Source: Candidatus Limnocylindria bacterium
GTDB lineage: Bacteria > Chloroflexota > Limnocylindria > QHBO01
Reading direction: 5' to 3'
Length of the DNA stretch: 29,276 nt
Assembly: GCA_035273815.1 (NCBI GenBank)
Contig: DATEOS010000097.1
Span: 1 to 29,276 of the forward strand
Shown: in pieces, positions 10,995-17,475 of the stretch
Layout of the letters: the number at the start of each line of letters is the position of its first letter
Position numbering within the stretch: the stretch's first letter is position 1
The notes under the pieces: model-generated
What the model was told of the DNA's origin: nothing
The model's database searches: none
The model's input: the letters and a program-made list of their open reading frames with translations, nothing else
Translations under genes and position numbers: made by a program

Positions 10995-12035
10995 CTAGGC
11001 GGGTGGCACCGGCAGCGTGGCCTCCAGGTTGGCCATTGGGATCGGGGCCAGCCGGCCGTCCTCGAAGCGGACCAGCCCCATACGCGTCGGGATGCCCGAT
11101 GGCGTGGCGTGCAGGTCCTCCAGCTCGGCCACCAGCACGCCGGCCCGGCCCTGGAACGGCCGGCGGTGGGCGATCACGCGCTCCCCCACCCGCGGCAGGC
11201 TGCGCCGCCCGGGCGCGAGCTGCGCGTCGTACACGTAGAGCAGGCCATCGGCGCCGAACAGGCTGGCCATCCGCCCGGCGTGGGCACGGAACCAGGCAAA
11301 CCGTTGCGGATCGATGCCCACCTTGCCGAAGCCCTCCAGCAGCAGCACGCCGAAGGATCCGGTCAGTCCGCCCACCTCGCGGCGGCGGCGCTGGATCGCC
11401 TCGAAGTCGCGCAGCTCCTTGTCGAGCACGCCGCCCAGCACGATGCCGGCGACGCCCATTGCCCGCGCCCGGGTCAGCGTCTCGGCCGACGCTCGCGAAC
11501 CCCCGACCACGATCTTGCCCGTGGCGCCTACGTCGATGGCAGCAGCCCGCAGCTCCTCGCTCGGATCATGCACGGCCACCACCAGCTCACCATGGACGGC
11601 AGACCCGGTCCCACCCACGCCGCGGAGCAGGACGCCCGGCACCTTGATGGTGATGGCAGCGTCCTCGATGCCGGTCACCGTGCCACTGACGTGCCCGATG
11701 ACCGGTTCCTCGTCGCCCAGCGGCGAGAGCAGGGCGCTGCCGTCCGACGCGGCCACCCCGAGCAGCAGGCCGTCGATGGGGGCCCGTACCTCGCGCCCCT
11801 CTTCCGTCCGGGCGATGGCGTCGCCCTTAGCCACCATGCTGCCGGGCGCAATCAGCAGCAGGCCGGCGATGTGCTCCGCATCCGCGTGAAGGGGACCCGC
11901 CAGCGGCACGCGCCGCGGCGCCGACGGCCGTCGATGGGTTGCCAGCACCTGGTCGGGGCGCACGTCGGCGCCGACTTCGACGCTGGGCGTGGCGCCGCGC
12001 GGCATGCGGACCCGGTGCAGCGTGGCCTCATTCAC
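10995..12035 (-). CDS. Uncharacterised protein: barrel-sandwich-hybrid-like repeats, central alpha/beta domain, C-terminal KOW/SH3-like domain (346 aa)
   Basis: Start GTG 12035 overlaps the upstream stop (GTGA). Half-barrel motifs SVEVGADVRPDQVLA, LIAPGSMVAKGDAIA, EVRAPIDG and GHVSGTV. Central GKIVVGG...ARAMGVAGIVLGG...LLEGFG. C-terminal VGERVIAHRRPFQGRAGV...IPMANLE. Domain calls are by eye. Confidence 0.75.
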   Translation of the reverse strand: MNEATLHRVRMPRGATPSVEVGADVRPDQVLATHRRPSAPRRVPLAGPLHADAEHIAGLLLIAPGSMVAKGDAIARTEEGREVRAPIDGLLLGVAASDGSALLSPLGDEEPVIGHVSGTVTGIEDAAITIKVPGVLLRGVGGTGSAVHGELVVAVHDPSEELRAAAIDVGATGKIVVGGSRASAETLTRARAMGVAGIVLGGVLDKELRDFEAIQRRRREVGGLTGSFGVLLLEGFGKVGIDPQRFAWFRAHAGRMASLFGADGLLYVYDAQLAPGRRSLPRVGERVIAHRRPFQGRAGVLVAELEDLHATPSGIPTRMGLVRFEDGRLAPIPMANLEATLPVPPA

Positions 12036-13702
12036 GGTGTCACCGCCGTCAGGGCCGGCTCGCGCACGAACGTGTCCCGCCAGCCGGCGAGCACCGCGCG
12101 GCGGTCCTCGCTGCGTCGCGGCAGGCCCAGGGGCATGTCCCTGGCGTCCAGGATCAGGCCGACCGCGCCACCCGACACCGTGGCATGCAGCCGCTTCCCA
12201 TGTCGCGCCCCGCCGAGCGTGACGCCGCCGGCCAGCTCGATCTCCAGGTCGGCCGACTGACCGCGTCCCAGCGGCAGCACCTGCACGCTTCCGCCACGCA
12301 CCTCGAGCGGCGCCTGATCGGGCCAACCGGTGCGATGCACGAAGACGCGCATCGCGAGCTGCCCCGAGCGGCCGCCGCGCGTGACCACCGCCGCACCCAG
12401 CGGCACCAGCAGGTCGTCGCGCAGCACGCCCATCCCCTCGCCGATCTCGCTGTCATCCAGCGCGCCAATGGGAGGCAGCGCCCCCGCGCTGTCGATCGCC
12501 AGCTGGGTGATACCCAGCGGCCGCACGCCGTCGAGCAGGAGCTGGGCCGCCTGCGCCGGCCGCGGAGCGGCGGCGATGGTGCGGCCGCAGCCGACCAGCA
12601 GGTCCAGTCCCTCGACACCTCCCGCGTCCCCTGCCGCCTGGCTCAGCAGATAGCGCGCGGCAGCGTGGGTCACGGCGAGCTCGTCATCGGTCTGCGGGAT
12701 GGTGCCCGGCCTGGCGTGCAGGTTGCGCAGGGCATCGGCGACCGCCATCTCGTCGATGGCCAGCGGCAGCATGCGGGTCAGGCGGCCCGCGCCGCCGGGC
12801 GCGATCAGGCTGCGAGCGGCCAGGCCGCCATCGGCAAAGACGCGGCTCTCGGCAGCACCCGCCTCATCGGCCGTCACCCAGGTGAGGTAGTGCGCGCCAA
12901 GGTCGATGCCCAGGATCCGCCGCATGCTGGAGCGCGCCAGCTCGGCGATGCCGCGGCGGAAGGACACCGGCGTCAGCTGCCGAACCCCGCCGGGCTCCAC
13001 CATCCGCTGCAGCATCTCCTCCAGCAGGTGGCGCAGGGGACCCGGGTTCTCGCCGTGGGCGCTGGGCCGTGGGTTGGCGACGACGCGCACGGCGCCGTCC
13101 TCGAACAGCTGCGCGACCTCGGCCGTCAGCGACTCGCTGCCCGCCCAGACGACCGGCTGCGGCGCACCGCCGCGGGCCGCGGCCACCAGGCCGGCCATCT
13201 CCAGCGCCTGATCCGCATGGCCCTCGTCGAATCCACCGGCCAGCAGCCAGACGTCGACATCTGCGGCCTGCAGGGCCGCCAGCCGCGTGGACAGCGAGCG
13301 ACCGTCGTCGGCCGTGGCGGCTTCGACCACGCTCCAGCCGGCCGACTCCGCCGCCCGTCGCGCGGCGTCACCGGAGAGCTCGGACGAGACGGCGGCCAGG
13401 CCGATGTGGCCGGGGCGCCGCGGGGTGTGACATGCGATCCGGGGCACGCCTCGCAGCAGGTCGGCGATGTGCTCCGCCACCCGGCGGTCGGCCACCGGCG
13501 CCAGGCGACCCGCCAGTGCGGCACGCAGCTCTTCCTCTCCCCAACCGGCCGGTTGCGCCACGTGACTGACGATGCGCCACCGCCCCCGGCTGCGCGCCAC
13601 TGCCGCGGCCTTGGTCCAGGCGGATCCCACATCCACCAGCAGCGACATCTCGGCGCCAATCGGGTTCGCGCCACTCGCCGTCAGCTGCTCGTCCACTGTC
13701 AT
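12032..13702 (-). CDS. GlmL/MutL (glutamate mutase L)-like ASKHA/actin-fold protein (556 aa)
   Basis: Start ATG 13702 (ATGA overlap). Phosphate-1-like LLVDVGSAWTK, DVWLLAGGFDEG, PVVWAGS, VVANPRP, second motif ILGIDLG, DLLVGCG...AP...QAAQLLLDGVRPLGITQLAIDS, and C-terminal GGAVGLILDAR..PL.LP. Matched from memory to the long GlmL-like family. This is not the DNA mismatch-repair MutL. Confidence 0.75.
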   Translation of the reverse strand: MTVDEQLTASGANPIGAEMSLLVDVGSAWTKAAAVARSRGRWRIVSHVAQPAGWGEEELRAALAGRLAPVADRRVAEHIADLLRGVPRIACHTPRRPGHIGLAAVSSELSGDAARRAAESAGWSVVEAATADDGRSLSTRLAALQAADVDVWLLAGGFDEGHADQALEMAGLVAAARGGAPQPVVWAGSESLTAEVAQLFEDGAVRVVANPRPSAHGENPGPLRHLLEEMLQRMVEPGGVRQLTPVSFRRGIAELARSSMRRILGIDLGAHYLTWVTADEAGAAESRVFADGGLAARSLIAPGGAGRLTRMLPLAIDEMAVADALRNLHARPGTIPQTDDELAVTHAAARYLLSQAAGDAGGVEGLDLLVGCGRTIAAAPRPAQAAQLLLDGVRPLGITQLAIDSAGALPPIGALDDSEIGEGMGVLRDDLLVPLGAAVVTRGGRSGQLAMRVFVHRTGWPDQAPLEVRGGSVQVLPLGRGQSADLEIELAGGVTLGGARHGKRLHATVSGGAVGLILDARDMPLGLPRRSEDRRAVLAGWRDTFVREPALTAVTP

Positions 13703-16697: not shown

Positions 16698-16948
16698 CAG
16701 CGAGCGTCCTCGTCCGCGGCGGCCAGCCGGTCAAGCAGCGCGTCATAGGCATCGTCCTCGTCGAGCGTCCGCTGCACCAAGCCGGCTCGCGTACCGAACA
16801 GCGGTCGCGTCACCGGCTGCAGGAACAGCGCAAGGCTGCTCAGCAGCGGGCGGAGAGGACGATGCGCTTCGAGCAGCAGCAGCGCGGGCGCGGCGAGTCC
16901 CCGGCGACGGAGCTCCGCGGCGATGATCTCGCTGCGGTCGTCCGTCAT
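16697..16948 (-). CDS. Small hypothetical protein (83 aa), probably a conserved family
   Basis: RRGLAAPALLLLEAHRPL...FLQP, with an acidic C-terminal helix. It fills the macrodomain-DUF6754 gap exactly (ATGA and TGATG overlaps), which supports it being real. Confidence 0.75.
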   Translation of the reverse strand: MTDDRSEIIAAELRRRGLAAPALLLLEAHRPLRPLLSSLALFLQPVTRPLFGTRAGLVQRTLDEDDAYDALLDRLAAADEDAR

Positions 16949-17475
16949 CGGCTGGCGGCCTGCAATGCCTCGCTTGCCGCTCGGTAGGCGACCGCCTGTT
17001 CCGGACCGCCAACGACGATGACCAGCGACCGGGGCAGCGTTTCGCCGCGTGCCTCGCGCCCCACCAGCACCTCCGCCAGCACCCCGGCCGCCTCCTCGGG
17101 GCTGAACACGCCACGCTCCACCCCGATCGGTGTCATCGCGATGCGCGGCAGGCCCAGGTGCGCCGCCATGGTGAACGCCGTGTTCAGGGCGGAGGCGAGC
17201 ACCGCCCGATCCTGCTTCAGCTCATGCCCCACGGCCACCGCATGGATGATGTGCGATGCGGCGAGCTTCCCGCCGCCCGTCACCGCTGCGGCGCCGGGCG
17301 CCACCGGGCTCTGGGCCACCGCCTCGCGCTCGACCGTCTCACCGGCGCGCCGCTTGACCGACTGGGCCAGGGGGTTGGTCATGAACAGGCTCTCATTGGC
17401 CGGCACGATGATCGCGTCGACCTCGAGCTCGGCAATCTCCCCCTGCCACACGTCGATCTCGATCGGGACGGCCAT
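16945..17475 (-). CDS. Macrodomain (Appr-1''-p processing / ADP-ribose-binding fold) protein with degenerate motifs
   Basis: IDVWQGEIAELEVDAIIVPAN, AAVTGGGKLAASHIIHAV, RIAMTPIG..RGVF. AAGAGG SD-like sequence upstream. Confidence 0.85.
   Translation of the reverse strand: MAVPIEIDVWQGEIAELEVDAIIVPANESLFMTNPLAQSVKRRAGETVEREAVAQSPVAPGAAAVTGGGKLAASHIIHAVAVGHELKQDRAVLASALNTAFTMAAHLGLPRIAMTPIGVERGVFSPEEAAGVLAEVLVGREARGETLPRSLVIVVGGPEQAVAYRAASEALQAASR

Follow-up and report, generated by a model that had tools for sequence, protein, structure and literature searches.

The 29,276-nucleotide contig DATEOS010000097.1 of a Candidatus Limnocylindria bacterium (Chloroflexota; assembly GCA_035273815.1), hereafter the window, carries on its minus strand a macrodomain gene followed by seven genes, P2 to P8, whose products we propose to form one self-contained cytoplasmic-membrane complex of a kind not yet described, a reading to which we give about an even chance of being right. 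The proposal draws on the co-linearity of the genes across phyla, their single-copy vertical pattern, their overlapping junctions and a predicted interface between P7, a GlmL/MutL-family protein of the ASKHA fold, and P8, a three-domain adaptor. The module probably serves some housekeeping purpose at the cell membrane or envelope. Full-text literature searches returned no paper on the operon, and an earlier reading made from the DNA letters alone (the sequence-only reading) had already noted no known function for such neighbourhoods; in agreement with it, no characterised complex matches.

Seven co-linear genes and an added macrodomain

Eight open reading frames (ORFs) of 176, 83, 280, 205, 302, 213, 556 and 346 codons run from 17475 to 10995 on the minus strand:

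16945..17475, minus strand: macrodomain protein, 176 amino acids (aa), first gene of the cluster; Pfam Macro
16697..16948, minus strand: P2, small conserved protein, 83 aa; no Pfam match
15855..16697, minus strand: P3, DUF6754 protein, 280 aa; transmembrane (TM) helix, soluble domain, TM helix; PF20539
15238..15855, minus strand: P4, polytopic membrane protein, 205 aa; about six TM helices by hydropathy
14337..15245, minus strand: P5, 302 aa from ATG; TM helix, Rossmann-like domain, TM helix in an AlphaFold2 (AF2) model
13699..14340, minus strand: P6, polytopic membrane protein, 213 aa; about six TM helices by hydropathy
12032..13702, minus strand: P7, GlmL/MutL-family ASKHA protein, 556 aa; PF13941
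10995..12035, minus strand: P8, three-domain adaptor, 346 aa, GTG start; AF2 model

Direct reading confirmed the eight ORFs and the overlap that the sequence-only reading had claimed for every junction; from the macrodomain gene to P8 these read ATGA, TGATG, TGATG, ATGAATGA, ATGA, ATGA and GTGA. An alternative TTG start of P5 at 15257 would give 306 aa. The domains named in that reading (macro, DUF6754, GlmL-like and barrel-sandwich/KOW) were also right, by Pfam matches above cut-offs and, for P8, by Foldseek and superposition, and hydropathy agreed with its two TM-soluble-TM and two polytopic proteins, placing one TM helix at either end of P3 and of P5 and counting about six apiece in P4 and P6. 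The window has a G+C content of about 72% and long ORFs in all six frames. Because such a composition yields long ORFs by chance, the decisive support for the genes is homology rather than open frames, and we accept P2–P8 as genes on the ground that all seven have homologues in the same order in other genomes.

Iterated profile searches revealed that the order P2-P3-P4-P5-P6-P7 is kept in 16 of 16 distant Chloroflexota loci, with P8 next in ten of them. At the remaining six P8 is not fused to P7: fusion to the longer, Chloroflexales-type P7 was considered and rejected, the extra length being a Pro/Ala-rich tail, and P8 was found once elsewhere in all five genomes searched (those behind loci L010, L011, L012, L015 and L018; E values of 1e-94 to 1e-102). 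The claim of a conserved, co-located set holds across these loci and several other phyla, where the homologues are co-linear rather than scattered. Of the eight genes claimed as one unit, the seven from P2 to P8 stood and the macrodomain gene fell away. It is present in L001–L005, L008, L019 and L025, lacking at L009 and L020, two loci of the same family, and missing in 15 of the 16 distant loci, a patchy distribution that marks it as a lineage-specific add-on to a P2–P8 core. The sole carrier among those 16, the unrelated locus L025, also has it ahead of the cluster. Within the family, the order glmS-acpS-nnrD-alr-(macro)-P2..P8-tsaE is kept in all eight loci that span both flanks (L001–L005, L008, L019 and L020).

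The macrodomain protein matches Pfam Macro (PF01661) at 1.4e-14 and 54.5 bits against a cut-off of 22, and reaches 38–60 bits (best 59.6) against NCBIfam ADP-ribose-binding and deacetylase equivalogs, the cut-offs of which are 200–315. It reads VPAN in place of the MacroD-type NAAN, and the glycine-rich diphosphate (GGG) loop is absent. Judged by its sequence, the protein does not appear to qualify as a MacroD/YmdB-type ADP-ribose hydrolase, and its gene looks like a degenerate addition in front of the operon in the present lineage.

P7 and P8 are predicted to form a complex

P7 matches Pfam MutL (PF13941) over residues 21–419 at 1.5e-30 and 106.8 bits, against a cut-off of 27, and public records label it 'glutamate mutase L'. 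Against the GlmL equivalog NF040745 it scores 52.4 bits (cut-off 475) and against TIGR01319 46.1 bits (cut-off 204), in the N-terminal half only. The phosphate-1 motif (DxGxxxTK) is kept as DVGSAWTK at residues 23–30, with G26 and T30 nearly invariant (alignment A6), the phosphate-2 motif reads IDLGAHYLT, with D267 and G269 kept, and GCGR stands at the adenosine motif; in homologues from outside Chloroflexota the latter two are canonical, DIGGATTD and GSGG. The protein has a further, C-terminal beta domain, the invariant D.R..P core of which (consensus DARGRPL) lies outside the predicted P8 interface. A search of the P7 sequence against solved structures returned no match. At L010, L011, L012 and L018 the Pro/Ala-rich tail of P7 ends in a KRGFF-RRK-like, basic-aromatic sequence that resembles a membrane-targeting helix.

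The AF2 model of P8 (predicted local distance difference test, pLDDT, 92.9) comprises a barrel-sandwich hybrid, a swivelling beta/beta/alpha domain and a KOW/SH3-like domain. Superposition matched the barrel-sandwich (residues ~37–108) to the N-terminal domain of RnfC and NqrA (Z 7.5 and 7.2), to an insert of RNA polymerase beta' and to domain II of T. maritima NusG, the swivelling domain (~134–271) to Enzyme I (Z 9.8), rifampin phosphotransferase (9.3), RraA (9.0) and the small subunit of aconitase X (8.6), and the third domain to KOW (Z 9.2); Foldseek matched the model to RraA, LdcA and NusG, and P8 homologues gave faint RnfC_N matches in Pfam. Conservation falls mostly on glycines, together with E234-G-F-G237 and N336/E338, and in 47 homologues various residues occupy the site after the conserved GG at which the carrier histidine would stand. 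A role of P8 as a phospho-carrier was rejected: the fold matches, yet the acceptor residue is not conserved.

Prediction of P7 and P8 as a complex gave an interaction score from aligned errors (ipSAE) of 0.86–0.87 in three runs, and the best control gave 0.02; among solved complexes 58 of 80 attain the ipSAE mark, and among mismatched pairs 2 of 110 do, counts that are only rough here, as our own alignments were used. The score expresses how confident the model is and is no measured binding. All three P8 domains contact P7 in the predicted complex, and the invariant G235, G237 and N336, with the GFG motif, lie in the interface; P8 is predicted to clamp P7. The confident inter-subunit interface that the sequence-only reading had made a test of its proposal was thus found for the ASKHA protein and the 346-aa adaptor (ipSAE 0.87).

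The small protein and the membrane proteins

A Pfam scan of the eight proteins gave no family for P2, P4, P5, P6 or P8, and P2–P6 contain no cysteine. In P2 a helical acidic tail comes after a hydrophobic PA..FLE..KP..F.GSQ segment, and P2 homologues lie before P3 in Chloroflexota and before P7 in other phyla. P3 matches PF20539 (DUF6754) over residues 32–269 at 4.3e-15 and 56 bits (cut-off 27) and has TM helices at ~21–51 and ~241–274 by hydropathy (homologues in alignment A3). Among 19 homologues, the mean count of lysine plus arginine is 4.05 after the first TM helix and 0.68 before it, and the soluble domain of P3 is predicted to be cytoplasmic. For P5 the corresponding count, again in 19 homologues, is 3.32 after the second TM helix and 0.95 before it, and its soluble domain is predicted to be extracytoplasmic, opposite to that of P3.

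The AF2 model of the P5 core (pLDDT 84.5) shows a TM helix, a six-stranded Rossmann-like domain and a second TM helix, and its neighbours in the AlphaFold Database are same-family Zn-ribbon proteins and one DUF6754 entry (TM-score 0.42–0.44). Homologues of P5 are 527–1521 aa long, with the conserved core in the C-terminal ~250 aa; in other Chloroflexota an N-terminal Zn-ribbon is followed by a long acidic Pro/Ala-rich linker. These cytoplasmic linkers (L010:11070-15407, L011:4398-8837, L015:11211-15773 and others) hold 5–63 copies of (hydrophobic)-P-x-W-L, spaced ~20–35 residues apart, where shuffling gives fewer than one, and two more copies lie in the P7 tail of L010. The P5 of the window is a minimal form that lacks Zn-ribbon, repeats and linker.

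Twenty homologues of P4 share invariant P109, R179-G180, G184 and R195 (alignment A1), and P6 has invariant G45, G49, G117, G121-T122, Q126, F157 and G183, with P125 nearly so (alignment A2). The idea that P4 and P6 are paralogues was rejected (hhalign probability 0.3%), as was the same idea for P3 and P5 (0.2%), where only a weak structural hint links P5 to DUF6754. An ESM Atlas feature search with P3 and P5 returned only their own uncharacterised families.

Distribution across genomes and phyla

DUF6754 is single-copy and all-or-none within families; of 301 Chloroflexota genomes 79 have it, and none of the 14 control genomes does, E. coli and B. subtilis among them. P8 is single-copy in at least 57 of the 61 genomes of the class. 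Three class genomes of 1.1–1.2 Mb (G133, G269 and G324) gave no P8 match, and one more had none among the matches listed; as the genomes of the class without P8 belong to one strongly reduced genus, the system can evidently be lost on genome reduction. At 50% identity the P8 family numbers 949 representatives; at least 595 species were matched by a P7 profile from other phyla and at least 579 by the P8 profile. The sequence-only reading had placed homologues in poorly cultured lineages, which proved too narrow, for they also occur in a Planctomicrobium isolate and in Chloroflexota whose genomes are complete on a single contig, and the genera Planctomicrobium and Gimesia carry P8. With these cultivated carriers, and with cultured members of Gimesia and Singulisphaera, the proposal is directly testable.

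Gene order in other phyla was read from local profile scans of 79 loci. The order P2-P7-P8-P3-P4-P5-P6 was found in six of six Planctomycetota loci, in Nitrospirota, Zixibacteria, BRC1 and Eisenbacteria and in one Armatimonadota. Bacillota have the order 3-4-5-6-7-8-2-7-8, that is, with the P7-P8 pair duplicated. The tandem duplication of ATPase and adaptor, P7-P8-P2-P7-P8, was seen at L045, L053, L058, L068, L072 and L111, with membrane genes beside it at L045, L058, L068 and L072 and not at L053 and L111. P7 and P8 also occur without the rest of the module (L029, L030, L032 and L034), and their linkage persists where the membrane genes differ, the two being adjacent or, in L034, two genes apart. 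At L029:3409-10425, from which DUF6754-type membrane genes are absent, FtsX-ABC_tran-FtsX lies 22 bp upstream of the pair.

In some lineages P8 is unlinked from the cluster. In three of the four genomes examined, the genes immediately after it then encode a REC-(GAF)-HisKA-HATPase kinase and a REC protein, and in the fourth a REC protein alone follows; the unlinked loci are L042:7280-10241, L043:9143-11958, L044:9208-12944 and L041:6972-9402. A PspC-domain gene is divergent from P8 in L042, and a YkuD L,D-transpeptidase gene lies upstream of P8 in L041.

Flanking genes and expression

In the window the cluster stands in the order cdaA-cdaR-glmM-glmS-acpS-nnrD-alr-[cluster]-tsaE-tsaB-rimI, with two genes directly flanking it:

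17513..18802, minus strand: alr (alanine racemase), upstream flank; Ala_racemase_N and Ala_racemase_C; 37 bp before the macrodomain gene
10496..10975, minus strand: tsaE, downstream flank; TsaE 2e-34; 19 bp past the P8 stop, then tsaB and rimI

The gap between alr and the macrodomain gene, described earlier as 37 bp without a terminator or TAnnnT, is indeed 37 bp and holds no TA dinucleotide and no terminator-like hairpin. A scan for promoters and terminators found nothing, with zero terminators over the whole 10 kb, a result that says little for an organism of such high G+C content (72%). The longest alr ORF (17513-18802, 429 aa, domain from residue 68) and the longest acpS ORF (19549-20295, 248 aa, domain at 128–221) overlap their upstream genes (18643-19545 and 19946-21775, respectively) by at least 160 bp, so their true starts probably lie downstream of the first in-frame start codon. 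Envelope-related genes neighbour the module or its parts in scattered lineages: cdaA-cdaR-glmM-glmS...alr here, FtsX-ABC-FtsX at L029, and PspC and YkuD beside relocated P8.

One rhizosphere metatranscriptome contained contigs 90–96% identical to the window on P8, P7, tsaE/tsaB and alr. Contigs of close relatives span the P7/P6, P6/P5 and P3/P2/macro junctions, and none among the contigs listed crosses the alr-macro gap, which leaves the co-transcription with alr and the c-di-AMP genes put forward in the sequence-only reading as a possibility.

A proposed mechanism and its alternatives

In the complex that we propose, P7 would bind nucleotide in the cytoplasm, clamped by the three domains of P8. 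P7–P8 would dock on a membrane platform made of the unrelated six-helix proteins P4 and P6 and of the oppositely oriented TM-Rossmann-like-TM proteins P3, with its domain facing the cytoplasm, and P5, with its domain facing outward; P2 would belong to the set. Nucleotide-dependent conformational switching of P7–P8, of a chaperone or reactivase type rather than phosphorylation of a small molecule, would be passed through P3, P4 and P6 to the outward domain of P5, and cytoplasmic ATP would in this way power or gate some housekeeping activity on the outer side of the membrane, most probably one related to the envelope or cell wall. This specific coupling of P7–P8 to a platform, serving a housekeeping process at the membrane or envelope, is put forward tentatively and sits on the unlikely side. 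It is possible, if short of an even bet, that the seven-gene module represents a new class of machine, powered or organised by an actin-fold ATPase of the GlmL branch together with an obligate clamp of three domains, passed on vertically and almost universal in several whole phyla or classes (Chloroflexota lineages, Planctomycetota, Nitrospirota and others), which would fulfil a core task at the envelope or membrane for which model bacteria have other means. The present lineage carries a stripped-down version, with a minimal P5, eroded phosphate-2 and adenosine motifs in P7, an added macrodomain gene and the block set between alr and tsaE.

A module that is single-copy, vertically inherited, retained in reduced 2-Mb genomes and found across ten or more phyla probably has a function basic to the cell. 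If the proposal is true, it would add a new way in which nucleotide hydrolysis in the cytoplasm is coupled to the membrane's outer face, and would give a function to DUF6754 and to a large group of proteins mis-annotated as 'glutamate mutase L'.

Several points weigh against the proposal. That all seven proteins share one complex, the direction in which coupling would run and the process that it would serve are what we infer, the contacts of P2–P6 being assumed from co-linearity alone and that between P7 and P8 being the sole one modelled. Transport, envelope biogenesis and signalling, as suggested in the sequence-only reading, are likewise candidate roles. The topology of P3 and P5 comes from hydropathy and the positive-inside charge rule, with no dedicated predictor, and the outer domain of P5 has only generic Rossmann, RCK, SDR and GT-B matches and lacks a recognisable ligand site. 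With its phosphate-2 and adenosine motifs eroded in the present lineage, ATP turnover by P7 is uncertain here. A Pfam tally of 71 flanking genes revealed no recurrent functional neighbour, so that the link to the envelope rests on a few lineage-specific contexts and the process cannot be read from context. The contigs of the RNA library may contain carried-over DNA, and they show presence, not a single transcript.

The public name 'glutamate mutase L' and the Pfam MutL match would be explained if P7 were truly GlmL, a chaperone that reactivates a coenzyme-B12-dependent mutase, beside unrelated membrane genes. This reading, to which we leave next to no chance, is already contradicted: P7 scores far under the GlmL cut-offs (52 against 475 bits for the equivalog, 46 against 204 for TIGR01319), the membrane genes are co-linear with it across phyla, and Met_asp_mut_E was not found in genome G000 or in 20 others from its family, 10 of which are 90% complete or better, for which reason a role of P7 as a glutamate-mutase helper was rejected. 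A separate FtsA is present in 21 of 21 related genomes, and P7 as an FtsA replacement was likewise rejected; both tallies include one unpublished genome (G330), and no claim hangs on that genome alone. Phosphotransfer signalling, in which P7 would be a kinase with the swivelling domain of P8 as its substrate and P8 would relay the signal, for example, to the hybrid histidine kinase and receiver proteins beside P8 in Chloroflexales-type genomes, has somewhat more in its favour and is still very improbable. The middle domain of P8 superposes on the phospho-histidine domains of Enzyme I and rifampin phosphotransferase, and unlinked P8 is followed by kinase and REC genes in three genomes and by REC only in a fourth; against this, the carrier-histidine position is not conserved, the conserved P8 residues are nearly all glycines or interface residues, and the kinase neighbourhood is confined to one lineage group. 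An anti-phage defence system was rejected, as no PADLOC model matched; the eight proteins matched 0 families of PADLOC-DB.

Two further alternatives are each unlikely in our judgement, with neither ahead of the other. The module could be a membrane-anchored actin-like cytoskeleton, in which P7 polymerises, P8 caps or bundles, the membrane proteins anchor the filament and, in most Chloroflexota, the long P5 linker acts as a multivalent nucleator or tether. The signature of the actin/Hsp70 fold family in P7, the 5–63 (hydrophobic)-P-x-W-L copies in P5 homologues with two in the L010 P7 tail, and the membrane-targeting-like KRGFF-RRK tail on P7 of lineages with relocated P8 are consistent with such a filament; however, a large surface of P7 is covered by P8 in the predicted complex, FtsA is separately present in the related genomes, we know of no GlmL-family protein that polymerises, and the repeats, being wholly absent from the P5 of the window, are not core to the system. 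Alternatively, P4 and P6 could form the pathway of a new primary transporter or permease, with the outward P5 domain binding substrate and P7–P8 energising or gating transport. Two conserved proteins of six helices each, in which certain polar or charged residues do not vary (R179 and R195 in P4, Q126 and T122 in P6), an outward alpha/beta domain on P5 and the P7–P8 pair 22 bp behind FtsX-ABC-FtsX at L029 would suit a transporter, but Pfam and NCBIfam assign neither P4 nor P6 to a transporter family, nothing specific ties the P5 domain to solute-binding proteins, no substrate-related neighbour occurs among the 71 flanking genes and, to our knowledge, no transporter is driven by an ASKHA protein.

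Comparison with known systems

Among known proteins, P7 is closest in kind to GlmL/MutL of methylaspartate mutase and to Or-4 of ornithine degradation, with which it shares the PF13941 match and the phosphate-1 motif. It differs from them in scoring below the NCBIfam cut-offs, in its C-terminal DARGRPL-type domain, in its obligate partner P8 and in its membrane gene set; the B12 mutase was not found in the genome family of the present operon, and the neighbours of P7 are membrane proteins in place of GlmE and GlmS. The PilM-PilN-PilO, FtsA and MreB-MreC-MreD-RodZ systems resemble the module in pairing the gene of a cytoplasmic actin-fold protein with genes of bitopic and small polytopic membrane proteins, but their partners are unrelated by sequence or profile, P7 belongs to the GlmL branch and FtsA is separately present.

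Rnf and Nqr contain two six-helix subunits of about 200 aa, and the barrel-sandwich of P8 (~37–108) superposes on RnfC and NqrA with Z values of 7.5 and 7.2, which, being near 7, lie in the range of a common fold. Unlike in Rnf and Nqr, P2–P6 lack cysteine and, by Pfam, cofactor motifs and domains, and P4 is not homologous to P6; a redox-driven pump of this type was rejected on these grounds. The fold of P8 residues ~134–271 is shared with phosphoenolpyruvate (PEP)-utilising enzymes (Enzyme I of the phosphotransferase system, pyruvate phosphate dikinase and rifampin phosphotransferase), RraA and the small subunit of aconitase X (Z 8.6–9.8), whereas in P8 the carrier histidine of the PEP-utilising enzymes is not conserved and their ATP-grasp and PEP-binding partner domains are absent. 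The type VII ABC mechanotransmitters (FtsEX, MacB and LolCDE) offer an analogy, in that cytoplasmic hydrolysis moves an outward domain, as might also occur here, and the P7–P8 pair of L029 lies behind FtsX-ABC-FtsX; ATPase fold and membrane proteins differ, and there is no homology.

In the reactivases of diol and glycerol dehydratases (DdrAB, GdrAB and PduGH) an ASKHA ATPase and a swivelling domain are united in the large subunit, whose exchange of a Rossmann-like partner subunit depends on nucleotide. The present module may resemble them in that ASKHA P7 is predicted to bind the swivelling-domain protein P8, with the Rossmann-like, predicted cytoplasmic domain of P3 alongside. It differs in that the swivelling domain sits on a separate protein, P8, together with a barrel-sandwich and a KOW domain, and in that, with no dehydratase present, the presumed client would be a membrane complex.

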